A DNA stretch of 62,784 nucleotides, counting the filler, from an uncultured virus (IMG/VR IMGVR_UViG_2049941000_000092) (lineage: Duplodnaviria > Heunggongvirae > Uroviricota > Caudoviricetes). It is 15 parts of one record of this genome, joined end to end, with 100 filler letters (N's around TTAATTAATTAA, not from the genome) between each part and the next. Parts side by side here need not be neighbours in the genome. Positions count along the whole stretch, not along the records: positions 1 to 13,656 come from IMGVR_UViG_2049941000_000092; positions 13,757 to 17,967 come from IMGVR_UViG_2049941000_000092; positions 18,068 to 20,103 come from IMGVR_UViG_2049941000_000092; positions 20,204 to 28,675 come from IMGVR_UViG_2049941000_000092; positions 28,776 to 32,167 come from IMGVR_UViG_2049941000_000092; positions 32,268 to 35,897 come from IMGVR_UViG_2049941000_000092; positions 35,998 to 37,740 come from IMGVR_UViG_2049941000_000092; positions 37,841 to 40,578 come from IMGVR_UViG_2049941000_000092; 7 more parts are not named here. One strand, given 5' to 3'. The notes beneath the pieces are model-generated. The model was not told the DNA's origin and did no database searches. It was given only the letters and a program-made list of their open reading frames with translations. How positions within the stretch are numbered: the first letter of the stretch is position 1; every line of letters begins with the position of its first letter. Below are positions 4,224-57,678 of this stretch, in pieces. The translations under genes and the position numbers were made by a program.

Positions 4224-4895
4224 ATGACTATAGAACAATTAACATATGCAATTCTTAATGATGTTGTATCTGGGCTTGTTGGTTTACACGAAAATGTAAC
4301 TATTTCGGAAGAACAATTACAAGACGAAGTCGTAGCATTAAGAGAAAGCATTATTATCGAAAAGTGGAGACGTGGGTTGCTTCACAAAAATGATTTGCTC
4401 ACCGCTATTAACTGCATTGAGGTGGACTGTAAAGATTCTACCAAATGTTGCACGAAAGTGGGAAAATCGGAAATGCATTTTGAAATTCCGCAATTAGTAT
4501 CGGGAATTGGCGGCGATGCTATAGCCTGAGTTGGGTCTGCCGACAGAAAACAACAATATAAAGTGTATTTCTCGCCAACGCAAGTGAAATATCATAAATA
4601 CAAAAAAAGAAACGTCAATCAACCATATGTATATATAGAAACCACTCCAAATGAAAACGGAATGTATGATGGTTGGATTTATAATCTGCCCTATGTAAAG
4701 AACATCTCGGTGATTGGTGTTTTCAGAGATCCTAGACAATTAGAAAAGATTGGCTGTAATGGTGATTGTGATGGTGGCGGTGGAGATCTCGGAAGTATTA
4801 GTTCCGAAATAAAGACTAGGCTCACCAAAGAGAAATTATATTACTACAGAAGTGCATTACAACCTCCACATAGAAATGACCAAACCGCACGATAA
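4224..4895 (+). CDS. Ring/tail structural protein (one in-frame TGA=Trp)
   Basis: ORFs 4179-4529 and 4563-4895 share a frame and join through TGA at 4527 (DAIA-W-VGSADRK). Confidence 0.65.
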
Positions 4896-4897
4896 TT

Positions 4898-5877
4898 ATG
4901 GAACTAACTAATTTAAATGCTGCTTATGGTCTTTGTGAAACCTTATACGGCATTTCTCCAGATGAATCTTCTTTCGAAGATTTGGCATTAGACGCTTGGG
5001 GTAGAATAGGAACCAAACACACGCGATTATATAAGTATATTGGGCGTGTCGAGGATAAGAAACTAGAACTTCCGTGCAATGCGGATGTAATCGAATCGGT
5101 ACACATTCCTATTCCGGATGCNNNNNNNNNNTTAGATTATCTAATGCGTCAAACGTTAGGTTGGAGATTCGTTTTGGAGATGACGATACAGTATTCACTC
5201 CACAAACGATATATATCGATTATATTAAAGCCCCTATGTTTATAAGATTGACTTATCAAGAAACAATCGATACTGTTGATAATACAAGAGTTTTAGAGTT
5301 TCCTGATTACGTTTGTTATGAGATTGTGAACGAATTTGTCAAGTTATTGATGGAGAATTCTAGCGACCCTAGACTTCAAACCAATTTCACTGTCAATCAG
5401 TCGGTAGCAGATCCTACCNNNNNNNNNNCACATAATTATTGATCAGAATCAATTTGAGTAGAACAATATATCGATAGATGACACTTTAATACCGACCCAC
5501 TATTACAAAAAGGTAAGCTTATAAGATATGATGAGGGCAATGGAACACTTTATTTCACTCATGATTATCCCGCTGTAATGGTCGTCTATCATGGAATTTT
5601 TGCAGATGAAGAAACGGGAATGCCTCTCGTAAATGACAAGGAACTTAGAGCTGTTGCAGCATTTATTGCGTATACATCAATTTATAAAGATTCAATTAAA
5701 AAACAAGATGCAAATCTTATGAAATTTGCGCAGACCGTCAAAGAGGATTGGCTGCGTGCTTGCAATGCTGCAAGAATACCAGAACATGTGTCTCAAAATG
5801 ATATGGATGCTGTTTTGGATGCGAGAGCTTCGTGGAATAGAAAATTTTATGGGCATTCTTTTAAACCTACAAAGTAA
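4898..5877 (+). CDS. Tail tubular/ring protein (pieces 4898-5121 and 5429-5877)
   Basis: MELTNLNAAY...LELPCNADVIESV continues at 5429 (with in-frame TGAs) to ...WNRKFYGHSFKPTK*. The 5132-5418 segment between them belongs to another gene. Confidence 0.55.
5132..5418 (+). CDS. Misplaced C-terminal fragment of the ring protein starting at 2339
   Basis: RLEIRFG...IYIDYIKAP...LEFPDYVCYEIVNEFVKLLMENSSDPR is a ring-protein-like C-terminus, bounded by 10-N gaps. Confidence 0.5.
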
Positions 5878-6349
5878 TGCAGCCTAGAGGTGAACGAAAT
5901 TGAGACTTTTACAACGACTTTAGTTTTACTCCAAAAGAACTATTTGAGTTAAAGGACGCACAGGCAATAGGAATCCGTAAAGTATTACCAACATATTACG
6001 GTGCGGATACTATTGTCGAATTGTGCGGACAAATATTTACTTACTTTATATATCTAGTAATTTTGGATATAATCGAAAATAATGTTACCTTTGAACTCCC
6101 ATTATTTTCCAAACAGAGAGCGTACATGTTTGTTAAATGCATTCAGNNNNNNNNNNAGAAGAATTAAAACGTGCCGTGGCTAACGGCGCTTTTATAGGAA
6201 CAGATTTCATTAAAACCGATTTTAAAGCTTATTATCTAGTATATCAACGAATATGTGGACGAAGCATATACGAAAAGAAAATATATATATCGTGTAATCT
6301 AAAGCAATGGTTTTATTCGAAAATTAATTCAGGAAAACAGTATTACTAA
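5877..6349 (+). CDS. IHF/HU-like protein (crAss-type), TGA=Trp
   Basis: TAATG-coupled start MQPRGERN-W(TGA)-DF...VILDIIENNVTFELP...GKQYY*. Confidence 0.55.
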
Positions 6350-6849
6350 TGGACATTGTAAACCCAGAAAAATATTATGAGCAAGTATTAAAAAGATATC
6401 CGAGATTAACAGAAAAACAAGTAGATAAAATCATAAAAAGTGGACTAAGAAAACTTTGATATTATAATATTAGAGGAGACGTCCTATTTAAAAGCCCTTA
6501 TTATACAGCATTTATTGGAAAAATATATGTTAACAAAACCCTTGCAAATCGATACAGGTGTGCGAAAAAATCCATAAAATATCGTNNNNNNNNNNNNNNN
6601 NNNNNNNNNNNNNNNNNNNNNNNNNNNNNNNNNNNNNNNNNNNNNNNNNNNNNNNNNNNNNNNNNNNNNNNNNNNNNNNNNNNNNNNNNNNNNNNNNNNN
6701 NNNNNNNNNNNNNNNNNNNNNNNNNNNNNNNNNNNNNNNNNNNNNNNNNNNNNNNNNNNNNNNNNNNNNNATTAATTGCCACTCGTAATGAAAAGTTTGC
6801 ATATACATTTATAAGCGGAAAAGATAAACATGAGACAAAACGCAAATAA
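6349..6849 (+). CDS. Second IHF-like/conserved protein, TGA=Trp, gapped
   Basis: TAATG-coupled start MDIVNPEKYYEQV...GLRKL-W(TGA)-YYN; missed by the ORF track. Confidence 0.45.
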
Positions 6850-9800
6850 CGAATTCAAGGATGGACTTAATCTCGATTTACATCCGATTGTAACTCCAAA
6901 TACAATACTCACAGATAACATAAACGGAACGTTTATCACATACAACGGTAATGAGTTTTGTCTGCAAAACGACCGAGGCAATAAGAAGATTGTTAGTGAT
7001 ATCGATAACGAGACAATATCATACGTTCATTTAACAAACGGTTACACTCCAATTGGTATCAAGGAGCGTAACGGTGTTTTGTATATTGTTTCAGTCAATG
7101 GTAATAAAACAGAAATTGGAACATTTCCCGCTCCACGATATCCTAGTTCGTGAGATAATACACTATACGATGAAGAGTACAAAGGTTCGTTTAAAGACGA
7201 AAATGGATTTGTAATATACGACGCGCTACATGTATTAGAAGGACACTCTGCTTTAACTAATGTCGATTTGGGATATACAACGGAAACACCAGTTACTATT
7301 GAAATCCAGGATTCGTATGACGGTTCTGTAAATCTCATTCTGATTGCCGACGGTTGTAAGCCAAGAATAATCAATTCTGGATTTAGTGTATTGCCAAACA
7401 ATCAGTACAAGTTCGTAAATAGAGCACAAGATGTTCTTACAAATATATATTCTGATTCCGAGATTGGTAAAGAATCCGAATTAATCAGAACAAGCGGCAT
7501 CTTAACCAATATTGGGCTACTTGGTGTACAGTCCGGCGGACAATGGAAGGGCGGTAATTATACATTCTATATTAAATTTGGAGACGGAGATTTTAATCAG
7601 ACAGATATTGTAGGAGAATCAGGAATTGTTTCTATATTTAATGGAAATGATGCGGTTCCATCAACGATATCTGGTACGCTCTTANNNNNNNNNNNNNNNN
7701 NNNNNNNNNNNNNNNNNNNNNNNNNNNNNNNNNNNNNNNNNNNNNNNNNNNNNNNNNNNNNNNNNNNNNNNACTTAATGTCGATTATCATACTATTGACT
7801 GGGCAAGAGCGGAAGCACAACATTCTAATATGTTATTCTTAGGAAACGTTGGGCAAGAGGAAACGTTCAAGTTGTATCAACAGTTAAAAGATTTTACTAA
7901 AGGCTTTACTGTAACGATAAAACAAGATCTTGGAGAAGAACAAGGTATATCAAAAGTTACATCTGACTATAAATCTGGAACTGAGTATTATAGTACAGCC
8001 AACATCTATTCGAAACTGGGATACTGGCCAGATGAGATTTATCGTTTCGGCATTGTTTATGTGTTAAAAGATGGTTCTACAACACCTGTGTTTAATGTTA
8101 CTGGCGGCGTATTTACATCTGTTAATTCTGAGATAACTACGCAAAGTACTTATACACAGTACATTAACGATCTTGGTGTATTCCGTACACCAAGAGCCGA
8201 TATTATAACGAGTTCAAACAAAGTTCGCCCATTATACTTTAATTTTGAATTGCCGAGCGATGTTTCTTTATTGGAAAGTAACAATGTAGCGGGATGGTTT
8301 GTAGTACGGCAAAAACGAATACCAAGAACTATTTGTCAAGGATTAACCATCGGGATCGATGAAAAGAGTAATCTTCCGATGATTTGAAACGGAAATGACT
8401 GAATGATAGAAAGTTTTCTATCTCTAGATCGTACGGATAAAGATAGACAACAAGAACTAATCAAACGGATAGAAGATCTTGAAGGTGACTATAACAACAC
8501 ATGATGGAAGGTCGCCCTCGGCCTGCTCGTGGCACCAGTCGCTGGTATTTTCATAACACCGGAGATGTTTACCGTTGCTGTTTCATATGGTGTGACGACT
8601 ACTGTAAGCTCCAAACTTAAACTGGAAGCATTGAAGAGAAATATTTNNNNNNNNNNATTCACTAAAAGAATTTGAACTGACATCATTTGGTGTATGTGAA
8701 CAACGCGATTCAAACGCTCCAGCAGGAACATATTATACACACATGTATACAAATTATAACGAATGGTATAGTGCTTATATAAAAGATCCTAAATACAAAG
8801 CTGGAGAAGTAGCGCTCGTCGATAATGTTGATAAGGTAGGCCAAGACGATGCTGTGTTTTTCTGAGACTATCTTCTAATAGAACCGGAAAATATGACCTT
8901 ACCGATTGGAAATTCTCCGTTAGAACATGCTACACATATATNNNNNNNNNNGCATTAATTAGAAGTTTTGCCAAATATTGTGATAGATATATCTATGAAA
9001 GTACTGCTAACTTAAAGGGACGAGGTTTGCTAAGTTTGGACCCGTGCGTAAACTCTTCTATTAGTGGAATGCTAGATGGTTCTATATTTGAAATCGTCGA
9101 TGAATATAATGTGAATTGTGCTTTCGGAGTACAAGAATCGGAAACAGATCTATATTATAACGATAATTATTTAAAGGTAGATCACGAAAATTATATATAT
9201 ACTGGATCTGATCCCACTAAAAAAGCACGCAAATGTGTATATGTGGCTCNNNNNNNNNNNNNNNNNNNNNNNNNNNNNNNNNNNNNNNNNNNNNNNNNNN
9301 NNNNNNNNNNNNNNNNNNNNNNNNNNNNNNNNNNNNNNNNNNNNNNNNNNNNNNNNNNNNNNNNNNNNNNNNNNNNNNNNNNNNNNNNNNNNNNNNNNNN
9401 NNNNNNNNNNNNNNNNNNNNNNNNNNNNNNNNNNNNNNNNNNNNNNNNNNNNNNNNNNNNNNNNNNNNNNNNNNNNNNNNNNNNNNNNNNNNNNNNNNNN
9501 NNNNNNNNNNNNNNNNNNNNNNNNNNNNNNNNNNNNNNNNNNNNNNNNNNNNNNNNNNNNNNNNNNNNNNNNNNNNNNNNNNNNNNNNNNNNNNNNNNNN
9601 NNNNACACCATATGTCGGAATTGCTGCAAATGATATTGCAGAAGGTAAAATTTACTCAATTCGTTTGGATGAATCAAATACAAATCTTTCCAATTTATTT
9701 TTAGTCAGGAAACAGGACTCTTCCGAATATTATTGTGTATCCGAAAGAAATCCAATACGGAATGGAGAAAACGAGATTTATAATTCAGATGTATATCGCG

Positions 9801-11254
9801 GCGATTGCTATACAAATACAATAACAATGCGTATACTTAACAATTTCGTAGATTCGACAGCTCCAGTATCCGATCAGATTTTAGACGAAGAAGGATGATA
9901 TAAAGTACTACAGGCCATAGAGAATCCGACTACAAATTCTAACAACGAACCGATAGATCCATGATCCAACGTGAATTTATCTGACGTAAATACGGTAGAT
10001 TTGGGTTATTGGGTAACATTTAAGTGTTTGTCCTCATATAATTTAGGTTTACGGTGTATGGATAATTTCCATACCGACGAAATGTCTATGTTTGGGTCAC
10101 CTCGATCATTCTATCCATTAAATAGTATGTCTACCGCAACCGGTAATAAGATAGAAGAATCCCTACTTTTAAACGACGGTCTTTCTGCAACCGTGGGTAG
10201 AAAACGATATAATCTGATGCCGGATGTTCCATATTCGCGTTCTGAATTCTCAAACAGAATTATGTTCTCGAATGTACATGTGACAGATGCTTATACAAAT
10301 GGATATAGAACGTTCCAAGGACTATCTTACAAAGATTATGATAAACAATATGGTGCAATAACTAAATTGATATCGCTTGGACAGAATATCTTTATTGTCA
10401 TGGAACATGGATTAGGATTAGTTGCTGTGAATCCAAAAGCACTTATGCAAACAACAACCGGAGAGATGATTCATATATATGGATACGGGGTTTTACCGGA
10501 CGAGATTACAGTAATTTCGCAGGACTATGGTTCTAAATATGAACACTCTGTGTTAAGAACACCAATTGGTATTTATGGTGTCGATGTTGATGCTAATAAG
10601 GTCTGGAGATATTCTGATAGGAATGGATTCGAAACAATCTCTGATATGAAGGTTGAGACCTATTTAAAAGACAATCTTCAGCCATTATCAGTGGATATGG
10701 GAACTTCAGATATTAGAACGCATTATAATGCAAAGAAGGGCGATGTGATGTTTACCTGATATTCTGGACAGCGGGTTTATTCTATCTGTTTCAACGAACG
10801 TCAGAATCTTTGGGTTACTAAATATGACTGATGTCCGATTGTTTCCGAAAATGTCGACGATGAATTTTATTCACTAAATAAAAAGCAGGACGATTCTAAC
10901 GATAATCTCTATTATATTTGAGACCATAAATATGATGTTGCTTTTAACGGTGGACATGTTTCAAGCTGGTACGATAATGAAAATGGATTTGAGTTCGAAT
11001 TCGTAGTATCCAATCCCATCGGTATTGGAAAGATATTCGATAATCTTCAGATTATTTCAAATAATGTACAGCNNNNNNNNNNGTATAAGAATGGAATGTG
11101 ATTCGCACAAATAGAACCTCTACGAATGGATATTGCTGGAGCTCAGCAGAAGAAAGAAGTGCGGATTAGAGACAAATGGGCTAAGATTCGCATTAGATAT
11201 TCTGGTAAAGATTTGGCTATTATTGCCGCTATTAAAACTTTAATTAATGTGTAG
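6830..11254 (+). CDS. Tail stabilisation (muzzle, P22 gp10-like) protein; gapped, multiple TGA=Trp
   Basis: N-terminus MRQNANNEFKDGLNLDLHP...NEFCLQNDRGN, internal GYWPDEIYRFGIVY, C-terminus RIRDKWAKIRIRYSG...INV*. TGAs at 7151, 8385, 9896, 10757 and others. Confidence 0.8.
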
Positions 11255-12007
11255 ATAAANNNNNNNNNNNNNNNNNNNNNNNNNNNNNNNNNNNNNNNNN
11301 NNNNNNNNNNNNNNNNNNNNNNNNNNNNNNNNNNNNNNNNNNNNNNNNNNNNNNNNNNNNNNNNNNNNNNNNNNNNNNNNNNNNNNNNNNNNNNNNNNNN
11401 NNNNNNNNNNNNNNNNNNNNNNNNNNNNNNNNNNNNNNNNNNNNNNNNNNNNNNNNNNNNNNNNNNNNNNNNNNNNNNNNNNNNNNNNNNNNNNNNNNNN
11501 NNNNNNNNNNNNNNNNNNNNNNNNNNNNNNNNNNNNNNNNNNNNNNNNNNNNNNNNNNNNNNNNNNNNNNNNNNNNNNNNNNNNNNNNNNNNNNNNNNNN
11601 NNNNNNNNNNNNNNNNNNNNNNNNNNNNNNNNNNNNNNNNNNNNNNNNNNNNNNNNNNNNNNNNNNNNNNNNNNNNNNNNNNNNNNNNNNNNNNNNNNNN
11701 NNNAACACACACGATAATAATACATATCGTTCTGATGATTGAACATATAAATACGATTTAAGACTAAATCAAAAGATGTTAGTTAAGTCTCAGATATTTA
11801 AAGACATCTATAGATACGGTCGTAGAATAGGAAATATTCANNNNNNNNNNNNNNNNNNNNNNNNNNNNNNNNNNNNNNNNNNNNNNNNNNNNNNNNNNNN
11901 NNNNNNNNNNNNNNNNNNNNNNNNNNNNNNNNNNNNNNNNNNNNNNNNNNNNNNNNNNNNNNNNNNNNNNNNNNNNNNNNNNNNNNNNNNNNNNNNNNNN
12001 NNNNNNN

Positions 12008-12837
12008 TATCCGGAATGGGTTCTGCTATTGGTAATAAATACGGTGACGATTTTTCGGCCGACCAGAAAGCGGCACAAAGTACAATACGGCAAGGTTTGG
12101 CCATGATCCCTGGTTATGGCCAAATCATTGCTGCTGCAACAGGTGTTGTGGACGCACTTGGTAACGCTACCGGCACCAATCTAAGCAATATTGATAAAAA
12201 TTCTGCAAAACGGGCTGGTGTTGGAGGAACTGCTATATTTAACAACTTAATGAACATGCTTCCTGGTAATTCAATGATTTGAGGTTTGATGGGAAGTAGA
12301 ACTAATAATTATAAACTGTCCGATGAAGCAGAAGAAATGCAGTCTGGTTATGGAGCAGCACTTGCTGATTTAAGAGCTGGGGAGGATCTTGCAAATAAAC
12401 GAGTTCTTTTCGGAAGAAAGAAAATCAATAATTATCTTGGCGAAGCTCGTTCTACAGATAGAATTCTTTCTCAGATTAATGAGACTAACACGATGCGTAA
12501 GCAATCTGATTATTACCAGGATTTAAACCATCAGAATCTTATGCGTTACGCCGGACAGAATTATATGGGTGTTACTGTAGGAAAGAATGGTATAAAACTA
12601 ATGTCTGCCGAAGAAGTTAGAGCCATTCTTGCAAAGAAACAGGAGGCCCAAAAACTTCAGAATGGTGGAACAATTGGTATTGACACTAATATCCTCCCTG
12701 AAGGTGCTCTACACGCACGTAAGAACAATCTTGCAGATGTGAATCCGGACTTGGAAGACGCCACTAAGAAAGGCATTCCCGTAATGGCTGCCGAGGGCGG
12801 TACGGTCGGAGAACATTTATCGTTTCGGCATTGTTTA
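12008..12837 (+). CDS. Internal virion (cargo) protein fragment
   Basis: Gly/Ala-rich region then EGALHARKNNL...KKGIPV motif; in-frame TGA at 12280. Confidence 0.55.
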
Positions 12838-12847
12838 NNNNNNNNNN

Positions 12848-13464
12848 ATGTTCAAATTGGAGAAAGGGTTTTCCATTTGATGGTTGCGGAAACAGAAGAA
12901 GATAAAGCTACTGGTTTAATGGGAGTTACCGAAATGGAACCCGACGAAGGTATGTTATTTGATTATTCAGATGATCCTCAGTCAGAATTATCCTTCTGAA
13001 TGAAAGATACAGAAATTCCGCTTGATATCATTTTTGTAAATCAAAACGGCGTTGTGATTTCTGTTAAACAGGGGCAACCAAACTCAGAAGAACTAATAAC
13101 AGAAAGTTCCGAATTTATATCTTGCGTGATTGAATTGAATGTTAACTCTGGCGTAAAGCCGGGGGATAAGACAGATTTGTTTTCGGAAATAAATAATGCA
13201 GAACCGGAGGATGAAGAAGAAATAGACGAACATCCGGAATTAGGAGTTAATCGTTTATATGTATACGGGTCTGATGGTAATGTACAAGCAGAATTACAAG
13301 GCGGAGAACGCATCTTTAGTAGAAAATCGAGCGTTGTTATAATCAGAAAGGCCAAGAAAGCCTATGTATCGAAAGAAGACAAGGATTATAAGGCACTGGG
13401 TAGATATGTTTTTAACGAGATGACCGCCCAAGATAATAGAGAACCTGAATATACAGAAGCATAA
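12848..13464 (+). CDS. DUF192-domain protein (TGA=Trp in FWMK motif)
   Basis: VAETEEDKATGLM...GMLF...SF-W(TGA 12997)-MKDTEIPLDIIF...VIELN is the canonical DUF192 signature. Confidence 0.8.
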
Positions 13465-13465
13465 T

Positions 13466-13656
13466 ATGGGAAAAATTGTAACACACGCAGATCCAAAAGG
13501 TCATAAATTCTATAGACACGAGCACGTTGTCAAAATCATGTTTGACGATAACGAACCTCCTAAAAACTATTTATGACACAAACCAAACGGCATCCTTTAC
13601 GAGTATGTAAACGGTGAATGAGTTCCTATCAACAGGAAAGCAAATCTTAGCGAATA
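13466..13656 (+). CDS. Hypothetical protein, 5' fragment with two TGA=Trp
   Basis: MGKIVTHADPKGH...NYL-W-HKPNGILYEYVNGE-W-VPIN, truncated by a linker. Confidence 0.5.
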
Positions 13657-13756
13657 NNNNNNNNNNNNNNNNNNNNNNNNNNNNNNNNNNNNNNNNNNNN
13701 TTAATTAATTAANNNNNNNNNNNNNNNNNNNNNNNNNNNNNNNNNNNNNNNNNNNN
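13657..13756. other. Artificial contig linker (first of 14)
   Basis: N-flanked TTAATTAATTAA six-frame stop. Also near 18012, 20148, 28720, 32212, 35942, 37785, 40623, 41865, 43955, 47012, 59475, 60468 and 62272. Confidence 0.97.
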
Positions 13757-35713: not shown

Positions 35714-37106
35714 TGGGTTGTGATATTAAAATAACACTTGGTGGCGTAACATATCCTGCGCTCCACTCCGATGCTGAGGTTGATGCTTTCATTAGAGAGC
35801 ATCAATCTCAAATATCGGATGAATTAAAAAATGGTTTCAATAAGATATTTTCTTTAACGTCGAAAGATGAAACTATTTCTAAATTAAATAAAGCACGNNN
35901 NNNNNNNNNNNNNNNNNNNNNNNNNNNNNNNNNNNNNNNNNTTAATTAATTAANNNNNNNNNNNNNNNNNNNNNNNNNNNNNNNNNNNNNNNNNNNNATG
36001 CTATTTTTGGTATGGTTGCTTTCTCTGGACGAGAAATGATAGAATCTACAAAACGACACCAATGAACTGTTCTTGGGCTTCCTAGTAAATCTAGTGTTAC
36101 ATCTACTGCGCCAGATTTCCTTCATAGAATGGCAATTCTTGGAGGACATTTAAAGACTATTGGTGCATGAGATGCGTATTCTAAAGATGACGACGATCGT
36201 CTAGTATATGATATGCATAAAGATAACCAGTATAAAACCTGATTAAGATACAAAGATAATGAAACGTTCCCCACAATTGAAGAACGTATAAAATATCAAC
36301 GAGAAAAACAGCACTATTTAGAGGCTCTCGAATCATGGNNNNNNNNNNCTCAGTATGGTAACTACGATGATGAAACCAAGTCCTTAATTCAGAAACAAAC
36401 TCTTGGCTCATTATTCTTCCAATATAAGACTTATGGTCTTGCTCAGTTCCAATTGTGGTTCTCCAACCCAACTTGAACTAACGAGTTGACATATAAGAAT
36501 GTTTTAGATGACAATGGTCAACGAATGGTTGCTGTTCCTGCACAAACCGACGAAGAATATCAAACACATGGCGACTGGGTCTGAATGCCAGAAGATAAGG
36601 TGACTGAAGAAATGTGGAAATTAAATGGTACACATTACGTAAAGGTTCTCGGTGGTAATTATTTCATTGGTAAAGCACAAACGAGCTGAATTCTTGCAAC
36701 CCATCTATTTACGCTTAGTGGAGAAGAGTTTGCCGAATTATGAAAAAATAATCCTCAGTATAGAGTTAATCTCTATATATCAATGCTTGACCTACTAGAA
36801 TTCGCAATCATTGGTCTGTTACTTAGATTATTCTGGGGAACCGATGATACTCCTATTTATCATCAAGACTTCTTATCCAGATGAACTTACGGTGTTCTAC
36901 AAGGTGCGTCTACCGACGGTCCATTATTCCAAACAATCAGTGGCATTGTTGGAGATGGAACACCACCTGTCTTCGGAATGCTTAAGAATTACTATCGTAC
37001 ATTTATGGGCATTGTTAATGGAAATGAAAGTTTACTATATGGACTTACAAACACATTAGGAATGACTCGTGAATTATCTAACGCTTTTAGAAGCACAATA
37101 AAATAA
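35713..37106 (+). CDS. Last large virion protein: start (35713-35897) and C-terminal fragments (35998-37106)
   Basis: TAATG-coupled MGCDIKITLGG. The TGA-rich C-terminal frame with hydrophobic segments ends AFRSTIK* before the terminator. Confidence 0.5.
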
Positions 37107-37740: not shown

Positions 37741-37840
37741 NNNNNNNNNNNNNNNNNNNNNNNNNNNNNNNNNNNNNNNNNNNNTTAATTAATTAANNNN
37801 NNNNNNNNNNNNNNNNNNNNNNNNNNNNNNNNNNNNNNNN

Positions 37841-38564
37841 CATTCTGCCAGTTAGGAATTCCAGCAATAATATTCGCGAACATTGTATAACTACGAGCAT
37901 TCATTACGTGAGTATGTGTCCCATAGTCATCCATCAATTCATGATGATATGCAAGCATGAAATTAATAGTTCTATTATCGAGATGATTTGCTTCTGCCCA
38001 TTGTGCCCAAGATTCAATATCCCATTTAATCGTGAAATTTACTCTACGGGATCTTGCAGCTTCATCTTCATCATTCACATTATAGTCGCCGTTACTAGGA
38101 TTAGTAGTCAATATGATAGTGGTTTGAGGCGGGAGTTTGAATGACCAGAACTCTTGCTTGTACACTAATTCATAAACAGCCTGAATAATATTAGGCAGTG
38201 CTCTAGACAAATCATCTAGATTAAGAATGGTTGGTTTCGTAGGATCTATATCCCTGTACCATTTAGGTAATGCGTAAGACATTTGTGTCTCACCGGTTAG
38301 TTGGTATCCGGCTTTAATATAGCCGTCTATTAATTCTGGCGGAATCCATTTACAATCGGAGCCATCATCTTTACAAGCATAATGTAAACAAATAGGGTAT
38401 CCAGCTAAATCGCCAGTCTCAGTAATCTGAGCAAGATTTAACTTAACATAGTTTGCACCAAGTTCGTTTGCAATTTCTTCCACAATTGCAGATTTACCGT
38501 AACCTGCTTCAGACGTAAGATTAATGCTAACTCGAGGTTGACCACGTTTTTCTATCTCATCGTT
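37841..38564 (-). CDS. MoxR-like AAA+ ATPase (partial)
   Basis: SEAGYGKS Walker A, ILNLDDLSRA Walker B, ILTTNP sensor. Confidence 0.8.
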
Positions 38565-38574
38565 NNNNNNNNNN

Positions 38575-39547
38575 ATATCAGCCATACGACATTGCGTGTA
38601 TGTGGTAAAGCCAAACTCAAACAGCCATCAGTAAATACTACAAGAGTGGAATATTCAGGATGTTCTATATAATGTACGAATACATCTCTAGCATCGGTAC
38701 CACCTCTACCAGAAATAACAATATCATCCCTTGGACCTTTGAATACAAATTTATTCTGTATTTTAGTATCGAATTCCACTACATCTATTGCTACACCTGT
38801 TTTATACAAATGTAACAGCTCAGAGAAAAACTCTGTAAGTTCTTTATCAGATATTGACCCAGAAGTATCTATTGCTACTAGTACTTTAGATTTAAACTTT
38901 ACCACATTTCCTGGTTGGTCTGGAAATCTAAAGGAAGGTCTATATCTAGTAGATTTTATAAACGATTGAATCGTATTTCCTAAAACTCTTCTAAGATATC
39001 CTCTCCAGTTAAAGACAGGCTTTCTTTTGGCAAATAGATTTTCGACATAAGCCTTGAAGCATCCGGGTATATTACCGTGTGTCTTTTGGACTTGTTCGGC
39101 TGCATTTCTTGCAAGATAATCTACTTGATCTTCNNNNNNNNNNATAAGTTGTCTCTGTGCAGAATCATCACTATCAAACCCACCCCAAATATGATTATCT
39201 GGACTCGCCCAACCATCAGGAATACGTTCGTAATACCACTTTGTACCCTTTTCTGGTGGAAATCCACAAGTGGATGGTGTATATAGAAAAGGAGGGAGAT
39301 TCTTTATGTAGGAATTAACTTCTATATCTGCAGCGATATTAAATTTATCATGATCAGGAAAATCTCTTCCCATCCAAAGATGCTTAAATAAGATATGCAT
39401 CACCTCATGTTGCAGAATTGCAACACGTTGTGGATCAGTCAAGTCTTCCCAATATTCTGGATTTATACAGAGATCGACATTAATTCCATTTGAGATAACA
39501 CACGCTGTCTTACTGGCGTACTTATCAAATCGTTTTTCTAAAGACAT
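38575..39547 (-). CDS. Metallopeptidase-VWA protein (DUF2201-like)
   Basis: HEVMH zincin, NIAADIEVN, MIDAS DTSGS, GRGGTD, VFTDG. Confidence 0.85.
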
Positions 39548-39587
39548 TAAAAAATTAAATGGTACACATTACGTAANNNNNNNNNNA

Positions 39588-40267
39588 GTGGTGTACCACG
39601 AACTAACTGTTCTATCCTCAACAGTTAGCATAGTAATTAGCTCATCGCTTTTATAGTTAAGTAGCCACGATTTCGTTGTTGTAAGAGGCCAATCGCGCTG
39701 TTTAGAACATTCTTGTTGTACATCGTAAATCCATTGCGGAATTATACATGTAAGCTGATTGTCGAATTTATCCTTCGAATAATTACAGTATCTCGTAGAT
39801 TCGTTGAGAAATGAGAACTTACGATGTCGTAAAATTTCACGACAAATGCCAATACTGCAAATAAACTTTACCGTAACTCGACGATGATGATGTTCCGTGC
39901 ATTCCGATATGCACTCGAGATCAGATAACCAACCATTATCAACAAGAACGCGAAGATTTGTGGTAATATAATAGTTATCATCATCTTCTTCAACCCAGGA
40001 ATACGGATTACTGCTATATGGACACTTTGCTTCGTTCCATACATCTTCATAATCCGATTTCGGTATAGTTAAGTAGACAGTGCCGTGTTCCAAACATGCT
40101 CCGTGGTTTGCTTTAATTAAAGAATCAACCATTCTTTTAGCACTATCTTCGGTAATATTATTTTCAGACTTATAAGCCGTTCTTGCGGCCAATTCTATCT
40201 GTTTATATATGCCATCCAGTCCATCCGACTGTGGAATAATTACAGCACTACTATCTACAAACTTCAT
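39588..40267 (-). CDS. thyX: FAD-dependent thymidylate synthase (3' truncated)
   Basis: HGACLEH and RHRKFSFLNESTRY (RHRX7S) motifs. Confidence 0.9.
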
Positions 40268-44738: not shown

Positions 44739-45128
44739 TTATTTTGCATATGGTGCAATTAATTTGTAAAATAAATTCTTATCCATTAAAACGACTTCTC
44801 CATCCGAAAGAAATCGATCATTAACCTTTCTCTGTTTATTCCATATTATCACGAATTCTTCGTTTGGAACAGTAGTTTCTTTTCTAATAGAGAAATATTG
44901 TGGCGTAGAAGTAGTACGTTTTAGTTGGATTTGACATGGTAATTTTTTAGACTTATCAATTACATCCACCTTGTTGTTGTCTGTGGATTTTGATTCCATT
45001 CTAGACGTAACACACTCGAAACCAAGATCCGTCAATTCCTTACAAACACGTCTTTCGTATTCGTTTCCCCTCTGTTTATTTCTCGCTCCTATTGAACGTC
45101 CTCTTTTAGTCTTTTGTGTTTTCGCCAT
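44739..45128 (-). CDS. Holliday junction resolvase-like PD-(D/E)XK nuclease
   Basis: RGNEYERRV...VDV...QIQLKR. Confidence 0.7.
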   Translation of the reverse strand: MAKTQKTKRGRSIGARNKQRGNEYERRVCKELTDLGFECVTSRMESKSTDNNKVDVIDKSKKLPCQIQLKRTTSTPQYFSIRKETTVPNEEFVIIWNKQRKVNDRFLSDGEVVLMDKNLFYKLIAPYAK

Positions 45129-46137
45129 AATACTCTATTGCACTATTAATTAAGTTCTTTGTAAATTTACTTCCACAATATCTGCGAACATCGCTGATAT
45201 CTTTATATCCAACATTGCGAGGAATCATTAATACGCGTATATCCGGAAAGTGTCGTCTAATTTTTCGCATATTTGATACACCAGCAATGTCTGTATCATA
45301 CAAAAGATATATGTGCTTAAATCTAGCCTTTAGTCGATTGTATTGTGCTTCCGACAGAAAGATATTCTCAGAACATGGAGCGATTGCTGTGATTCCATAT
45401 TCGGATAAACACATCACGTCCTTCATTGATTTAGTAATTACAAGATATTCACCTTGTTTCGGAAGTACATGTGCACCCTGAATAAGAGAGCTCTTCCAAT
45501 TACCAACCATTTTATAGGAATGTCGTCCAGGAAAATACAACCTTCACAATTCTATACCATCGGTGATACCACCAAAATAGCCATAACAACGTTGCTTATT
45601 GTTGAATATATAGAACAAATTATCGTTTAATCAAGCGTGTTTTAACGGATATATCTTAAATTTCTTCAACGTCTCCTTTGTAATTCCATAATTTAGTCAT
45701 CACTTAAGATCGATTTCGTCTCATTCACGAATTTCAACTTGAATGATAGATTGACCTGATTCCTGAAATTTTACACCAGTTGGTTGAATTTTTGCTTTGT
45801 TTGTTTTTAATGTTTTAGATTTTCTAATTTCAAAGTCGTTGGCAATTATTCGAAGTGCCATATAATATGACACTCCGAATAATGCTTCGACATAAGAAAA
45901 ACAATCATAACTACCTGAAGCAAAATCTTTTAAAATTAGTTTCCCATTTTTATTTCGATAGAAGCTACAAGTAGGATGATTGTCCTTTCTAATTTTGCTA
46001 CAGAAAAGTCCTTTCTTTACGGCCACACCATAATGCTCGAAAATAGCTTCCTCTGTAACATGCTTAAGTATCTCATCCTTTGTGAGATTTTCTTCTATGT
46101 CGGAAACCGATGAAAGATTAAATAATAAATCTCCCAT
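45106..46137 (-). CDS. DNA primase (Zn-finger + TOPRIM), five in-frame TGA=Trp
   Basis: FCSKIRKDNHPTCSF; RE-W-DEIDLK-W-W-LNYGIT; HA-W-LN; EL-W-RLYFP; VITKSMKDVM; LYDTDIAG; KDISD. Confidence 0.85.
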
Positions 46138-46661: not shown

Positions 46662-46967
46662 TTTAATAGAATCAAAAGTACTTATTAAAATAGCGTCGCT
46701 ATAAAGATTAACCTTTTTCTTAGATCATTCTGAATTTACTTTTATTCCTTTTTCTAATCTTGTTTTAGATATTTTATTTCTTGTTTCTTCAGGCAAAGTT
46801 TTTCCTTTTCAAAAACCATGTTTTCCACGATTTGCTTTAGATATCTTGGCCTTTGTTTCATCTGTACATGAAACACCTTTATTTCAAGGTTTTTTAGAAA
46901 AACCACAAGTGCCATCTCCACCATTTGTTAAATTGTAACATCCATCATGTGTTTTATATCATCGAAT
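46662..46967 (-). mobile_element. GIY-YIG/NUMOD3 homing endonuclease fragment (four TGA=Trp)
   Basis: IR-W-YKTHDGCYNLTNGGDG...P-W-NKGVSCTDETKAKISKAN...F-W-KGKTLPEETRNKIS...FDSIK. Confidence 0.8.
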
Positions 46968-47067: not shown

Positions 47068-47427
47068 ATTCCTATAAGATACTTTTTCAAAAACCTTAGA
47101 AAAGGTATTTGCAGCCATAAGATGAATTTCATCGAGCACAAGTAAATCACATGTTCAATTGAACTTGATTACTGTGTTAATAATTTCTACTCTTGCATTA
47201 TCCAAGAGTCCTCATACCTCTAACTGTTCAATTCATTGTTCTTTTAATGGTTCTGTTGGAACAACTACTAATGTGGATGCTTCCTCACTTCTCTTTACAA
47301 ATGCAGAGATAAGATTTAATGCTATGCGAGTTTTACCAAAACCTGTACAAGCAACTACTGTAGCAGCGCCTTTAAACTTTAACCAGTTTCTAAGACACTC
47401 TTTCTGTCTTTGATCACGAGTTACCAT
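47068..47427 (-). CDS. SF2 (DExH) helicase, 5' fragment, three TGA=Trp
   Basis: RDQRQ, ACTGFGKT, VVVPT..LKEQ-W, LVLDEIH. Confidence 0.8.
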
Positions 47428-50833: not shown

Positions 50834-51199
50834 CTAAATAATATCTTGATAGATATTATAGAGATTTTTGTGAAAATTTGTATTAAACTGAGATTCAAAC
50901 AAATCAATCAGACAAGAAGACACTTCAAACTCGTGATCCCCGATATAAACTGTTAAATCAAAATCGTCGTTTGTGTTAAGATATCGCCAAATATCGCTAT
51001 CATCAAACTGAATAGTATTTGGACTTAACCAACTATGTACTTCAGCCAATACAAAGTGTAGTTCTCCAAGATCATTCTTATCGAGAAGAGTTAAAAGTTT
51101 ATCAATCTTAGGAGATAACGCAATTTCTGATGGATCGTCGTGCTTAAGATTGGGATACCAATGATTCCCGACCTTCTTTACTATAATTAGTATGTTCAT
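50834..51199 (-). CDS. Hypothetical protein
   Basis: 121 aa intact ORF. Confidence 0.55.
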   Translation of the reverse strand: MNILIIVKKVGNHWYPNLKHDDPSEIALSPKIDKLLTLLDKNDLGELHFVLAEVHSWLSPNTIQFDDSDIWRYLNTNDDFDLTVYIGDHEFEVSSCLIDLFESQFNTNFHKNLYNIYQDII

Positions 51200-51641
51200 C
51201 TTTTGATAAATTTAGACATCGTGCCGCAAATACAGCGAGTTTATCGGCACGATTATGCATCTTATTATCTGCGTGACCCTTTGTTCAGACAAATGTTACA
51301 TTGTGGTAATCAATTAAATCTAATAATTCGAATCACAAATCCAGGTTTTTCTTTGTATAGTCGCCTTCGTCAAATCATTTTTTGGCAGATCCACGAGTTA
51401 TTGCTTCTACAACATACTTAGAATCAGACACTATCGTTATATTAACAGGGTTCTTAAAGAATTTCAATGTCTCAATAACAGCAAGTAATTCCATCCTATT
51501 ATTACTTGTATGTAAAAAACCTTGGTAAAGTTCTTGAATGATAGAATCATTACAGCATATAATTGAAGCGTATCCACCGGTATTTAAGCTGGATTGATAA
51601 CTTCCATCTACATAGGCTGTATATTTAGGATTCTTCTGCAT
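51144..51641 (-). CDS. rnhA: Ribonuclease HI (three TGA=Trp)
   Basis: YVDGS, TSNNRMELLA, IVSDSKY, KK-W, KNLDL-W, TFV-W-TKGHA, NRADKLA; ends TAA at 51144. Confidence 0.92.
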
Positions 51642-51822
51642 GTCGATCTTCTTCTACAACAGTATCTTCTTGTTTTTGGAAGTCAACATACTTTCCTAAA
51701 TCTTTCGTAATAATTTTACCAAAATAGTCAACCTTGTGTTTCTCACGCAATTTATCTAAATCTTCTAAAAATTCATTTGGATAGTCACACTGAAATTCAC
51801 CATTAAACACCAAAACGAACAT
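51625..51822 (-). CDS. Hypothetical protein
   Basis: Short ORF overlapping its neighbours. Confidence 0.45.
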   Translation of the reverse strand: MFVLVFNGEFQCDYPNEFLEDLDKLREKHKVDYFGKIITKDLGKYVDFQKQEDTVVEEDRHAEES

Positions 51823-52177: not shown

Positions 52178-52178
52178 A

Positions 52179-53667: not shown

Positions 53668-53798
53668 NNNNNNNNNNATTTGAAATTTCACCCAGTTTAT
53701 AAGCTTATTTATCTTTCGATAATAAACTTCAATGGCGATAATCATACCAATTGCGATTACTAATGCGAGCGATAAACAAATAATAATAGTTGTTTCCA

Positions 53799-54143: not shown

Positions 54144-55029
54144 NNNNNNNNNNAGAATATCTTTGTTAGTTTTGAAAACATCAATAGATAATTCATGTTG
54201 AATATATCTATGTAGTAGTTCGGCATTACAACTAGTATGAATTTTCTGAATATTCTTTCGAACTTCCAGTTTACCAAATTTATAATCAGTCTTTCTGTAC
54301 AGCATGTCCAGGGTGTGATTATAAATCTTCTGTAATTCGGCTTCATTCATATCTACCAGCTTAATGCTATCACCATTCTTTGTTTTTCAAACCCAATTAG
54401 TAATTATATTTTCGCTATTTTTAATTGCTTCCGTTAATTTCTCTGCAAGATCACTCATATCTTTAAAATTTATATTCTTTATATTCTACTTTTTCTTTAT
54501 CTTTTATAAAATTGAGGAAATAACAGNNNNNNNNNNNNNNNNNNNNNNNNNNNNNNNNNNNNNNNNNNNNNNNNNNNNNNNNNNNNNNNNNNNNNNNNNN
54601 NNNNNNNNNNNNNNNNNNNNNNNNNNNNNNNNNNNNNNNNNNNNNNNNNNNNNNNNNNNNNNNNNNNNNNNNNNNNNNNNNNNNNNNNNNNNNNNNNNNN
54701 NNNNNNNNNNNNNNNNNNNNNNNNNNNNNNNNNNNNNNNNNNNNNNNNNNNNNNNNNNNNNNNNNNNNNNNNNNNNNNNNNNNNNNNNNNNNNNNNNNNN
54801 NNNNNNNNNNNNNNNNNNNNNNNNNNNNNNNNNNNNNNNNNNNNNNNNNNNNNNNNNNNNNNNNNNNNNNNNNNNNNNNNNNNNNNNNNNNNNNNNNNNN
54901 NNNNNNNNNNNNNNNNNNNNNNNNNNNNNNNNNNNNNNNNNNNNNNNNNNNNNNNNNNNNNNNNNNNNNNNNNNNNNNNNNNNNNNNNNNNNNNNNNNNN
55001 NNNNNNNNNNNNNNNNNNNNNNNNNNNNG

Positions 55030-55620
55030 ATCTCCAAGTCGACACGCGACACTATTTGGAACAACAATATAATCTCCTTCATAGGTATTACATAAATGTC
55101 GAATGACACTTGACTTACCAGTTCCTGGTGCACCATGAAGAATAATAATACCACCTTCTGGTTCCTTCAAGAAATTAACAATGTCGTTATATACAGGAAT
55201 GAAGTCGTCGTTATAGCATTCGTTAATATCTAAATCAACTTTGCGTACGTCTACAGAACTCGTATAATAATCACCATTGCAATACTTGATAAGACGAATC
55301 TTTGAAAGACTTGTTTCAGGTTCCTCACGCGGAATTCTTCTAAAGATTTCTCGTGCTAATTCTTCAACAGCCTCGATTCTATCATTCATCGAGTTCCAGT
55401 AAATAGAAACACCTTTATGATGTATATAAATTACTCTATAATCTGCAGCAATCACTAGTGAACCGCCTCGTTCTTCTTCATCTTCTTCTGCTTCTACCCA
55501 TGAGTCAATTCTTACAACGTCAACCTGTTTAAATAAATCCTTAATGAGATCGAACTTAATTTGAGCACAATCTCTTCAGAAATCCGGATCGGCCATCTCA
55601 TATTGAAAGATCACTCATAT
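55030..55620 (-). CDS. AAA+ ATPase, N-terminal fragment (likely same gene as 53799-54143)
   Basis: GIIILHGAPGTGKSSVIRHL. Confidence 0.65.
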
Positions 55621-55974
55621 CTTNNNNNNNNNNAACAGAATTGTCAATTAGTTCTGGAGCTCACCTGAGTAATACTGCACGAATTTGTTTTTTAGCTGGC
55701 ATTCCTAATCACCGTTGAATTTGTCCATAGGTTCAGCCTTGTTTTCGCATTGAAATTATACATTTCTCAAAACCATTACAATCAGGATATTCTTCAGTAA
55801 TATCAGAAATGCATCTTAAAATTCCTGCAGTATATTCATGATATTTTTTCTCATAATCCATATTATTTCTTGTCTATTCTGTTACTTGCATCACTAAGAC
55901 AAATTGCAATTGGAAGAGCTAAAAGAACTACAATTACACCAATTATGTCTTTTAATGTTATAACAAACATAATA

Positions 55975-56259
55975 TTAAACTAAATATAATAAACAAAGTG
56001 CATAATGCAAAATTTGATCAGTTATATAACTAATCTTATTATATCTTGCTTTAAGTGCATCTATCGGAAAATGAAGTGTAGTTATTACAAATAACTGCCA
56101 ACACGGTCCGAAACATATAAAGAAGGGAAGAGAATATAGTACACAGTGAATAAATAAATGATACCAATTTCTTCCCTTCGTATCAGCTAGAAATGGAGTT
56201 TGAAAAAAGTAATCTCCAAGTAAATGACATAGTAATAATGTATATAATTTCAATAACAT
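55975..56259 (-). CDS. DUF3307-like membrane protein
   Basis: HLLGDYFFQT...HCVLY...HFPID...DQILH. Confidence 0.75.
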   Translation of the reverse strand: MLLKLYTLLLCHLLGDYFFQTPFLADTKGRNWYHLFIHCVLYSLPFFICFGPCWQLFVITTLHFPIDALKARYNKISYITDQILHYALCLLYLV

Positions 56260-56262
56260 ACA

Positions 56263-56909
56263 TTATATAAGATTTTCAAGGAATTGATCTAAAGGTCGAT
56301 TAGCATTAACATGTTCGTGCATGACATCATCTGGTATATTAGGAGCTTCAGCATTTACTGCAGCCTGTAAGGCATCATTTGCAGCCTGAGCTTGAGCCGC
56401 ACGAGCACGTCGAACCATAGCGTTTACACGTTCTAAAGCAGCATCATTCCAATCTGGAATTTCATCAACATCTTCATCACGTGGCATAGCTCTAACCTGT
56501 AGTTTAGTCCTATCAAATGAAAGTGGTGCTTCTCTATTATTTACATGATTTTTATCATTTTCTTGATTTTCTATTTTTCTGATCTGCACAATCAGTTTAT
56601 CTCCATTTTGAAACTCGCCGCCCATGCGACGAAATGGATCATAACCCATACCAAAGGAAACACGTGTGCGACCATTATCAGTACGCATTGTACCAAATTC
56701 AATAATACCTTGTGTAAGTATCCATCTTACACCAGCCTTAAAAGCATCTGCGATATCACCTTTTGCAGTACATAGACTTGATTGACTATCATCTACATCA
56801 TAAAAAGATTCATATCGCTTTGCAACTGCGTCAAGATCACTTGGTGTTGTTTTCTTATAAAGATCATCAATCCAAGCTTTAAAAACATTAAGAGTGTCTT
56901 CTCTTATAT
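56263..56909 (-). CDS. Hypothetical protein (5' in gap)
   Basis: Long frame with DAFKAGVRW and NGDKLIVQIRK modules and an Ala-rich tail. Confidence 0.5.
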
Positions 56910-57156
56910 NNNNNNNNNNATCAACCTCTCGGTAGACTTTTCCGCACCCATGTTTGTAAGTTATACCAGGCTTTATCAACTAACATTCTCATATTTCGTT
57001 TGTTTTAGTGCCCGTTTGTCATATCACAAATCAATTTCTACACTCCAGAAAAGCCAGCCGATATAAAGGGTGTTGTCATCGTAAAAATGCACAAGAGATA
57101 TGTATGGAAGAAGTACAAAAGACCATTGTCCTTCTTTAAACCAAGGACCATTTAAT

Positions 57157-57678
57157 CTAATATTTCTCATATCTATTTCCTGTTCTACTTTCTTCATTCT
57201 CGGAGAGTTTTCAAGAAGGACGGAAGGATTTGAGCCAATTTCTTACAGACCTGCAGACTTCTAGTGAAGATTGTTTTGCTACCTCTGTCGCAAAAGGACT
57301 ATCGTCAATATATTCTTCAAGCAAGTCCATTTGCTGGATTGCCCGTTTAAGATTCTTCTTGTCCTCCTCGCTCCACTCTGTGTGGCTCACATCCACCGGA
57401 GTAGCGAATTTAACATTCCTCTCCTTCTCGATGGTTTTGGTTGGAATACCGTTGCGGATGTCCTCCGTGATTGCCTTCTTGTCCTTCAGCATCCTGACGA
57501 GAGGATTTTGTTCCACCTCTGCGGGCTTCTGCTCTTTCTGCTTTTCGAGGTAGGCAATATACTCACTTGTCGAGCGATGTGTAAGAACCCCTTGCATTGG
57601 GAGCCTTTCTATATCGTAGATAAGGTCTTTCCTTATCCTCTCGTCCTCGCTCTCCTCTTGCTGGAATATAAAGTCCAT
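57157..57678 (-). CDS. Modular Bacteroidales-phage accessory protein
   Basis: ESEDERIRK, YLEKQKEQKPAE, WSEEDK, WLKSFRPS-W(TGA 57211)-K modules; ends TAG at 57157 if TGA is read through. Confidence 0.5.

Follow-up and report, generated by a model that had tools for sequence, protein, structure and literature searches.

Opal recoding with a tRNA-Sup(TCA) is in print for crAss-like phages of the Zeta group (Yutin 2021, PMC7886860; Lera phage 2025, PMC12386605). As far as the available text of these two reports goes, the phage analysed here resembles those phages in a genome size within the range of 145-192 kb, in many tRNA genes including a tRNA-Sup(TCA), in TGA at Trp sites of the TerL, RNAP-like, helicase, ring and muzzle genes, and in a recoding limited to parts of the genome, with sister lineages that recode TAG or keep the standard code. 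It differs from the phages described there in coming from bovine rather than human gut runs, in having PolB-like pieces, a GC content of 37.6% and no CTA suppressor, and in a replication block where recoding is as dense as in the structural block.

TGA is likewise recoded in the Agate and Jade phages, for which a model has been put forward where recoding regulates the late genes (Borges et al., bioRxiv 10.1101/2021.08.26.457843). These belong to different clades, but the layout given in the accessible part of that preprint is similar, with the suppressor tRNA in a standard-code part of the genome, recoded structural genes and an assumed standard-code host. According to the same text, Jade phages also carry RF1 and TrpRS, whereas no release factor (RF-1 domain) and no class-Ib (Trp/Tyr-type) tRNA synthetase gene was found in any of the five genomes compared here; the Agate example has unrecoded replication genes, unlike the present phage. 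Finally, the TAG-to-Gln reassignment of other crAss-like phages (code 15) was validated by metaproteomics (Peters et al. 2022, PMC9523058). The strategy is the same with another stop codon and another amino acid, and two sisters of our phage, G010 and G011, are of that type.

In the cellular code 4 of Mycoplasma and Spiroplasma, one tRNA-Trp, with the anticodon UCA, serves UGA and UGG alike, RF2 has been lost and the entire genome is recoded. The change considered here would instead be transient, brought by the phage and in competition with host RF2.

The recoding is confirmed as real in this phage, but the habit has been described for crAss-like phages since 2021; suppressor-tRNA-driven TGA-to-Trp recoding being already known in them, the phage opens no new question. 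With it, the large opal-recoded crAss-like phages gain a member from bovine gut; a local nuance is that recoding extends to the replication genes of this lineage. The phage also allows a three-way comparison among sisters with an opal, an amber and a standard code, lineages that differ in the share of the genome placed behind the suppressor.

Source phage and comparison records

The window, that is, the whole stretch of 62,784 nucleotides that was analysed, amounts to a digest, condensed and in places re-ordered, of G001, a 177,170-bp record of a crAss-like phage from metagenomes of bovine gut. As the record nearest to the window, G001 was used for the whole-genome figures. N makes up about 6.5 kb of the window, and the N runs mask deletions and re-ordering relative to G001, so that ORFs drawn across an N run are unreliable in the window. 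One run of 10 N (36339-36348) replaces 91 bases of G001.

The hallmark genes make the phage Crassvirales-like, with Pfam matches for capsid (Crass_capsid, 32 bits) and muzzle (crAss_MUZ, 84.4 bits) and PHROG matches for TerL (E 4e-59) and portal (E 1e-56); the Pfam matches to Ring_1 and Ring_2 are below the cut-offs. TerL is 45.8% identical to its counterpart in the nearest GenBank phage record and 26-28% identical to those of classified Crassvirales. The size of G001 and its tRNA number (15 tRNA genes and a tmRNA) fit a putative placement in the Zeta group, and the relatives found via the primase are records of 95-270 kb. The relatives compared are G002, also opal-recoded, the standard-code G008, the TAG-recoded G010 and G011, and two close relatives, L001 and L002.

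Coding density with TGA as a sense codon

The first-pass annotation had claimed a genome-wide reassignment of TGA to tryptophan, and the comparison of translation tables 4 and 11 that it proposed gave a rise in coding density. In G001 the density climbs from 83.7% to 94.2% when TGA is a sense codon, whereas control reassignments of TAG and TAA reach 86.1% and 89.1%; between window positions 4200 and 57200, the share of non-N bases in greedy ORF calls is 88.4% instead of 73.5%, with a median ORF length of 165 aa instead of 103 aa. The standard-code relative G008 gains just 1.1 points from the same change. The consequence for annotation is that code 11 splits the phage into 316 short ORFs where code 4 gives 200, the longest ORF growing from 1140 to 3471 aa and virion proteins of at least 3,000 aa appearing among the calls. 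Core genes had also been said to end in TAA or TAG; such are indeed the ends of the 200 calls (151 TAA, 49 TAG), but under code 4 this is true by construction.

TGA codons within conserved genes

Seven in-frame TGAs had been cited as lying at family-conserved Trp sites, and all seven were recovered at the places given for them. They belong to genes of the following set.

4224..4895, + strand, tail ring protein 2 homologue, one sense TGA (4527-4529)
9605..11072, + strand, crAss muzzle protein, C-terminal part (Pfam crAss_MUZ), sense TGA at 9896, 9962, 10757, 10829 and 10919
12848..13464, + strand, DUF192 domain gene (Pfam DUF192, 74.9 bits), sense TGA at 12997-12999
35998..37106, + strand, C-terminal part of a 1521-aa protein (G001 11441-16006), 8 sense TGA in the window ORF
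45106..46137, - strand, primase (Toprim; Pfam Toprim_2), 5 sense TGA (45544, 45631, 45697, 45700, 45721)
46662..46965, - strand, piece of a GIY-YIG-type homing endonuclease gene (PHROG homing endonuclease, E 1.6e-32), transposed relative to G001, 4 sense TGA
47068..47427, - strand, ResIII/DEAD helicase, N-terminal part (Pfam ResIII and DEAD), sense TGA at 47155, 47212 and 47233
51144..51641, - strand, RNase H (Pfam RNase_H, 89.3 bits), sense TGA at 51285-51287, 51333-51335 and 51375-51377

The RNase H motifs KK-W, KNLDL-W and V-W-TKGH (51375, 51333 and 51285) were aligned, with TGA read as X, against the four PDB RNase H chains shown. The codon at 51333 faces W in all four; that at 51285 faces W in two, with K and F in the others; that at 51375 faces W in one and lies one column off the W of E. 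coli-type chains. At the TGA of the DUF192 motif F-W-MKDT, both PDB chains have W, as do G008, G010 and G011, and G002 has TGA as well. In the primase, 77-78 of the 80 related loci carry TGG at three of the sites, including that of EL-W-RLYFP (45544-45546; TGG in 78, TGA in 2), and the remaining two sites are F or Y. The helicase site LKEQ-W (47233-47235) is TGG in 66 of 69 loci and TGA in three. P-W-NKG, ascribed in the first-pass annotation to NUMOD3, is present at 46875-46889(-), within the homing endonuclease gene, which in its whole form in G001 holds 7 TGA and no TGG.

In the muzzle gene, TGA 10829 is W in all four relatives, while at TGA 9896 both G010 and G011 have W and G002 has TGA. 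The ring gene, whose Pfam CrAss_Ring_2 match (E 5.7e-6, 26.6 bits) is slightly below the cut-off of 27, has its TGA opposite Y in G008, G010 and G011 and opposite TGA in G002. In the C-terminal part of the 1521-aa protein, five of the eight TGA sites are also TGA in both L001 and L002.

That these codons are assembly errors or the marks of decaying pseudogenes is next to inconceivable, and no support for it was found. Both are opposed by the agreement of the window pieces with the independent record G001 (97.3-100% identity, mostly 100%) and by the RNase H gene, which is covered by contigs of three DNA runs from three other studies, with 8-12 other differences each; among the differences listed (40 of 82), none falls in its three TGA codons. 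The RNase H comparison consists of these three DNA runs, and contigs of the RNA run X15 miss the TGA codons of the gene. Also opposed to both are G002, which shares TGA sites with G001 at roughly 55-65% protein identity, and the interrupted frames of relatives: across 82 IMG/VR loci, 48 stops line up with TGA sites of the window, and every one of them is TGA.

The amino acid read at TGA

TGA stands at Trp-type columns, as the first-pass annotation had it: opposite the TGA codons of G001, the residues in the non-opal G008, G010 and G011 are W in 68, F in 33 and Y in 28 of 207 cases, against a background W frequency of 1.3%. The log-likelihood is best for W, and relative to it F stands at -125, C at -358, R at -368 and G at -429 nats. 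The residue profile resembles that at TGG codons; TGA sites are less often conserved as W than TGG sites, since 32 of the 99 TGA sites covered, versus 101 of 195 TGG sites, show W in one or more of the non-opal relatives. The two codons also interchange between opal phages, G001 TGA sites being TGA (39%) or TGG (14%) in G002 and G001 TGG sites being TGA there in 25% of cases. The stops crossed by alignments in G002 are 175 TGA, 7 TAA and 3 TAG. Both the homologue columns and this interchange support the prediction, made at the level of sequence, that TGA is read as tryptophan.

It is extremely improbable that TGA stands for a residue other than Trp (Cys, Arg, selenocysteine, or Gly as in code 25) or is passed by context-dependent read-through without a dedicated tRNA. 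The likelihoods for C, R and G speak against these readings, and so does the base that follows, which does not differ between TGA and TGG (chi-square P = 0.20) and gives no sign of selection against RF2 contexts. The tRNA itself bears on the choice of residue, on both sides, as set out below.

The suppressor tRNA

The earlier reasoning that UGA decoding has to come from the phage is supported by a tRNA(UCA) gene in G001, the nearest full record, at 145708-145779 (Rfam tRNA 52.9 bits, ARAGORN cloverleaf). The gene lies outside the window, and a tRNA scan of the window and of 20 related loci around the primase found no suppressor tRNA. The molecule has 72 nt, a canonical cloverleaf with a 7-bp acceptor stem, a short variable loop, a CU-UCA-AA loop, an anticodon arm of Trp type and the discriminator G73; the last two we take to be Trp identity features. 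ARAGORN labels it 'SeC', which would favour selenocysteine, but the label comes from the anticodon alone, and the length, acceptor stem and variable loop are not Sec-like.

Among 120 bacterial stretches that match the anticodon arm, position 34 being left free, 102 are tRNA-Trp(CCA), 13 are tRNA-Cys(GCA) and five have no tRNA call. The Cys matches count in favour of another residue; against this, among the 3' tails listed the discriminator is T in the Cys set and G in the Trp set, and G in the phage tRNA. In the tRNA(UCA) of G002, the discriminator as read from the sequence is apparently A rather than G. Overall identity was rejected as a guide to the isotype, since the 64-69% shared with the tRNA-Trp(CCA) of relatives is no closer than for other isotypes and does not discriminate. 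In favour of tryptophan, the opal genomes G001 and G002 have tRNA(UCA) and lack tRNA-Trp(CCA), and G008, G010 and G011 each have tRNA-Trp(CCA).

Two elements of the phage tRNA block lie within the window.

60995..61068, - strand, tRNA-Gln(UUG) (ARAGORN; Rfam tRNA 61.9 bits)
61803..62195, - strand, phage tmRNA with a 30-residue tag (ARAGORN; Rfam tmRNA 67.1 bits, gathering 47)

The tRNA-Gln is not the suppressor. A tie between the tmRNA and recoding was rejected: tmRNA is above the Rfam cut-off in 19 of 57 related records, present in the standard-code G008 and absent from the opal G002.

Where TGA is used and where it is avoided

The claim of a genome-wide reassignment holds for most genes, in which TGA is a sense codon, but not for the tRNA block (about 40 kb), the capsid module and the nucleotide-metabolism cluster, which contain no homology-supported sense TGA. 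In-frame TGAs of G001 number 211 in the structural/virion block, 74 in the replication block and 63 in the tRNA block (109-150 kb); those spanned by homology are 103, 39 and 0, respectively, and 206 of the 348 lie outside every alignment. Recoding is as dense in the replication block of this opal phage as in its structural block. The tRNA block comprises small genes, the 15 tRNA genes and the tmRNA and encodes tRNA(UCA), so a part of the genome readable with the standard code holds the decoding tRNA. Seventeen conserved genes of the block have no TGA and 48 TGG in G001, and no TGA and 32 TGG in G002; the block pattern is conserved in this second opal phage.

Two further TGA-free regions fall within the window.

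14..1444, + strand, major capsid protein, 8 TGG and 0 TGA (Pfam Crass_capsid)
37785..40267, - strand, AAA ATPase, DUF2201 metallopeptidase/VWA and ThyX genes, 21 TGG and no TGA

The capsid module has no TGA among 12 Trp codons (P = 0.0012), and the major capsid homologue of G002 has 6 TGG and no TGA. The nucleotide-metabolism cluster in G001 (5037-10501) uses TGA for one of 36 Trp codons (P = 3.8e-6).

This distribution bears on the idea that UGA already codes for an amino acid in the host, as in Mycoplasmatales and Absconditabacteria, and that the phage mirrors the code of its host. In favour of this idea, the available text of the 2025 Zeta paper (PMC12386605) names Firmicutes genera as putative hosts of some opal-suppressing Zeta phages. 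We nevertheless consider a recoded host very unlikely. The absence of TGA from the conserved genes around tRNA(UCA) is not something that a code-4 host would impose, the phage has its own tRNA(UCA), sister phages recode TAG (G010, G011) or nothing (G008), and the residue profile is that of Trp, not Gly. The pointers to a Bacteroidota host are a BACON-domain protein and the literature.

In G010 and G011, TAG occurs 96 and 90 times in homologues of the structural block and not at all in the replication block. Typing the code from 21-kb replication loci was rejected, as amber phages go unnoticed in this way, G010 and G011 having the look of standard-code phages in those loci.

A proposed course of decoding

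We hold it highly probable that a 177-kb bovine-gut crAss-like phage with two codes switches UGA to tryptophan by its own tRNA(UCA). The conserved genes of the tRNA block, being free of TGA, are readable by an uninfected standard-code cell; that the host is such a cell is suggested by this block and by the literature. The block would be read first and yield tRNA(UCA), which host TrpRS presumably charges with tryptophan. UGA would then be decoded as Trp in competition with host RF2, and the replication genes (74 TGA) and the structural and virion genes (211 TGA) would become fully translatable. The capsid module and the nucleotide-metabolism cluster avoid TGA, plausibly for a need of high or early expression. 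The early and late timing implied here is read from gene order.

More tentatively, and with slightly greater doubt than confidence, we suggest that the code is switched ahead of DNA replication, that only the tRNA-bearing block of about 40 kb, the capsid module and the nucleotide-metabolism cluster remain legible to an uninfected cell, that tRNA(UCA) gates middle and late expression, and that avoidance of TGA marks the genes whose products are required ahead of suppressor accumulation or in the greatest quantity.

As separate observations, the pattern relevant to a switch before replication is shared with a relative whose proteins are roughly 55-65% identical, and the amber-recoded sisters, unlike the opal lineage, confine recoding to the structural block.

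Relation of the window to a full genome

All sampled words of the window also occur in virus record G001, a crAss-like phage genome of 177,170 bp (CheckV completeness 100%), and mapping identified the window as a condensed reverse strand of this genome, with pieces 97.3-100% identical to it. The order runs from G001 position 56462 down to 1 and resumes at about 176274, descending to 149777; the final 3 kb is made up of pieces of the 115-125 kb region. The window departs from collinearity with G001, some pieces being transposed (e.g. 5132-5418, 26402-26583, 46662-46965 and 54154-54526), and among its approximately 6.5 kb of N, the 10-N runs often replace tens to hundreds of absent bases, of varying length. 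ORFs and gene order across N runs are therefore unreliable; genome-level statements were made on G001 and mapped back to window coordinates.

By Pfam, the plus strand of the window encodes crAss-type capsid, ring and muzzle proteins, and the minus strand a replication module with an AAA ATPase, DUF2201, ThyX, dUTPase, NrdD, primase, helicase, RNase H and a GroEL-like protein. For TerL, identity reaches 45.8% with the nearest phage record in GenBank and is 26-28% with classified Crassvirales. The genome length of 177,170 bp and the tRNA load are compatible with Zeta-group membership.

In-frame TGA codons and the residue they encode

The first-pass annotation had proposed a genome-wide reassignment of TGA to tryptophan and cited seven example sites, all of which are present where it had placed them. 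With TGA as sense, greedy ORFs cover 88.4% of the non-N bases of window positions 4200-57200, versus 73.5% under the standard code. In G001, density rises from 83.7% (316 ORFs, the longest of 1140 aa) to 94.2% (200 ORFs, the longest of 3471 aa), higher than in the TAG-sense (86.1%) and TAA-sense (89.1%) controls, whereas in G008, a standard-code relative, it barely moves (90.5% to 91.6%). Runs of 9 studies, with bovine gut or gut metagenome as their label, contain the RNase H stretch. Three DNA runs, each of a different study, have contigs covering the gene and show 8-12 differences apiece; the 40 differences that were listed leave its three TGA codons untouched, and another 42 fall outside the list. 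Given the identity with G001 and the contigs of other studies, the in-frame TGAs are no artefact.

Homologous columns, a likelihood comparison and codon interchange with a second opal genome all point to tryptophan as the encoded residue. In RNase H, Trp occupies the DL-X site (X being TGA) in 4/4 shown PDB chains, the V-X-TKGH site in 2/4 and the KK-X site in 1/4, the other chains having Trp one column off; the DUF192 site has Trp in 2/2 chains. We retrieved 82 IMG/VR loci with primase and a virion protein, which cover 37 window TGA sites: the residues opposite are Trp 392 times, Phe 142 and Tyr 65, and all 48 stops found there are themselves TGA. Against the three relatives without TGA recoding (G008 and the amber, or TAG-recoding, genomes G010 and G011), the TGA codons of G001 face 207 aligned residues, with 68 Trp, 33 Phe and 28 Tyr, for a Trp background of 1.3%. 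On substitution profiles of the same whole-genome alignments Trp fits best, with Phe 125 nats lower, Cys 358 and Gly 429. A TGA in G001 can face TGG in its opal relative G002, and the reverse also occurs. Of the 99 covered TGA sites, 32 have Trp in at least one non-opal relative, versus 101 of 195 TGG sites, and 206 of the 348 in-frame TGAs of G001 lack any spanning alignment.

Recoding is organized in blocks

The proposal of genome-wide recoding needs correction, as the recoding is block-wise. Two of three G001 blocks are recoded; in the third, the conserved genes are free of TGA in both opal genomes.

Blocks of G001
11.4-109.3 kb, minus strand: block A, virion, RNAP-like and packaging genes
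150 kb through the record end to 11.4 kb, plus strand: block C, replication genes
109.3-150 kb, plus strand: block B, small genes, amidoligase/GATase genes, all tRNAs, tmRNA

Homology spans 103 of the 211 in-frame TGAs of block A (6 in TerL, 3 in the portal gene) and 39 of the 74 in block C, versus none of the 63 in block B ORF calls. The 17 conserved block B genes hold 0 TGA and 48 TGG in G001, and 0 TGA and 32 TGG in G002. Per 1000 aligned codons, G002 homologues carry 7.2 TGA in block A and 6.95 in block C, versus 0/4294 in block B. The amber genomes G010 and G011 have TAG solely in block A homologues (96 and 90), with none in those of block C (0/4565 and 0/5192). Replication genes, too, stand behind the suppressor in this opal lineage.

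Standard-code calls in block B end in TGA in 12 of 83 cases, and for one of its proteins the G002 match stops two residues short of a TGA; TGA may therefore still act as a terminator for some genes there. A similar '...KEIEL' peptide directly precedes TGA in each of two adjacent small ORFs (window 57838-57840 and about 58900; G001:150195-151464), where no spanning homologue was found, and these may be true stops at the edge of a recoded block. Beyond the window, block B also has a GATase-plus-amidoligase gene pair in two copies (G001:129066-131623 and 140221-143612), one of them adjoined by a phiEco32-like COOH-NH2 ligase gene (Pfam).

Inside the recoded blocks, two clusters avoid TGA: it accounts for 0/12 Trp codons in the capsid module (P = 0.0012), the G002 capsid protein likewise lacking it, and for 1/36 in the cluster of ThyX, DUF2201, AAA and neighbours (P = 3.8e-6). 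A GIY-YIG-type homing endonuclease gene (window 46662-46965, minus strand; G001:175741-176370) has 7 TGA and 0 TGG; the code of the phage is adopted even by this selfish element.

A phage-encoded tRNA as the probable decoder

The only RNA genes in the window are tRNA-Gln(UUG) and the tmRNA. G001 has 15 tRNA genes, all within 120.9-145.8 kb, and one of them bears out the proposal that the phage supplies UGA decoding:

G001:145708-145779, outside the window: tRNA with anticodon UCA

It has a normal 72-nt cloverleaf, which rules out a Sec type; the loop reads CU-UCA-AA and the discriminator is G. Searching bacterial stretches with its anticodon arm, position 34 left free, gave at least 120 matches; the 120 listed comprise 102 tRNA-Trp(CCA), 13 tRNA-Cys(GCA) and 5 without a tRNA call, and among the listed 3' tails the discriminator is G in the Trp set and T in the Cys set. 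TrpRS recognizes G73 and the anticodon as identity elements. Both opal genomes carry tRNA(UCA) and lack tRNA-Trp(CCA), which G008, G010 and G011 each carry; overall identity to their Trp tRNAs, 64-69%, is uninformative. The mechanism is very probably a phage-encoded, tRNA-Trp-like opal suppressor. Since neither an RF-1 domain nor a class-Ib synthetase was found in these five genomes, the tRNA would be charged by host TrpRS and would compete with host RF2 at UGA.

ARAGORN also predicts a CUA tRNA in standard-code G008 (22072-22144) and an additional UUA (ochre-type) tRNA in amber G010 (141349-141421). Suppressors lacking matching recoding are on record for the group (PMC12386605).

Opal recoding of this type is already documented for crAss-like phages. 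Yutin 2021 (PMC7886860) describes 243 crAss-like phages that read TAG as Gln or TGA as Trp and belong mostly to Beta, Delta and Zeta. In that study, recoding is usually limited to late-gene parts, suppressor tRNAs are reported, and code switches separate branches of the Zeta group (145-192 kb). The 2025 Zeta paper (PMC12386605) reports TGA-to-Trp recoding with tRNA-Sup(TCA) in phage Lera and tabulates further opal Zeta genomes; the Borges preprint (10.1101/2021.08.26.457843) offers a regulatory model and describes replication-gene recoding as variable; and the Mgcod preprint describes code blocks. G001 therefore adds another example of a known phenomenon.

A tmRNA in the tRNA block

Window 61803-62195, minus strand (G001:120299-120691): tmRNA gene, Rfam 67.1 bits (gathering score 47)

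The word tmRNA was not found in Yutin 2021, the 2025 Zeta paper or the Borges preprint, and two other papers from a literature search on the topic use it for annotation methods or overall counts rather than for crAss-like phages. The gene lies inside the phage tRNA block, and its 30-residue tag ends in MAA followed by a TAG stop. Of 57 related large crAss-like records, 19 have a tmRNA above the cut-off, including G007, G008, G010 and G011; it occurs in standard-code and amber genomes and is absent from opal G002, and is thus a group trait unlinked to recoding.
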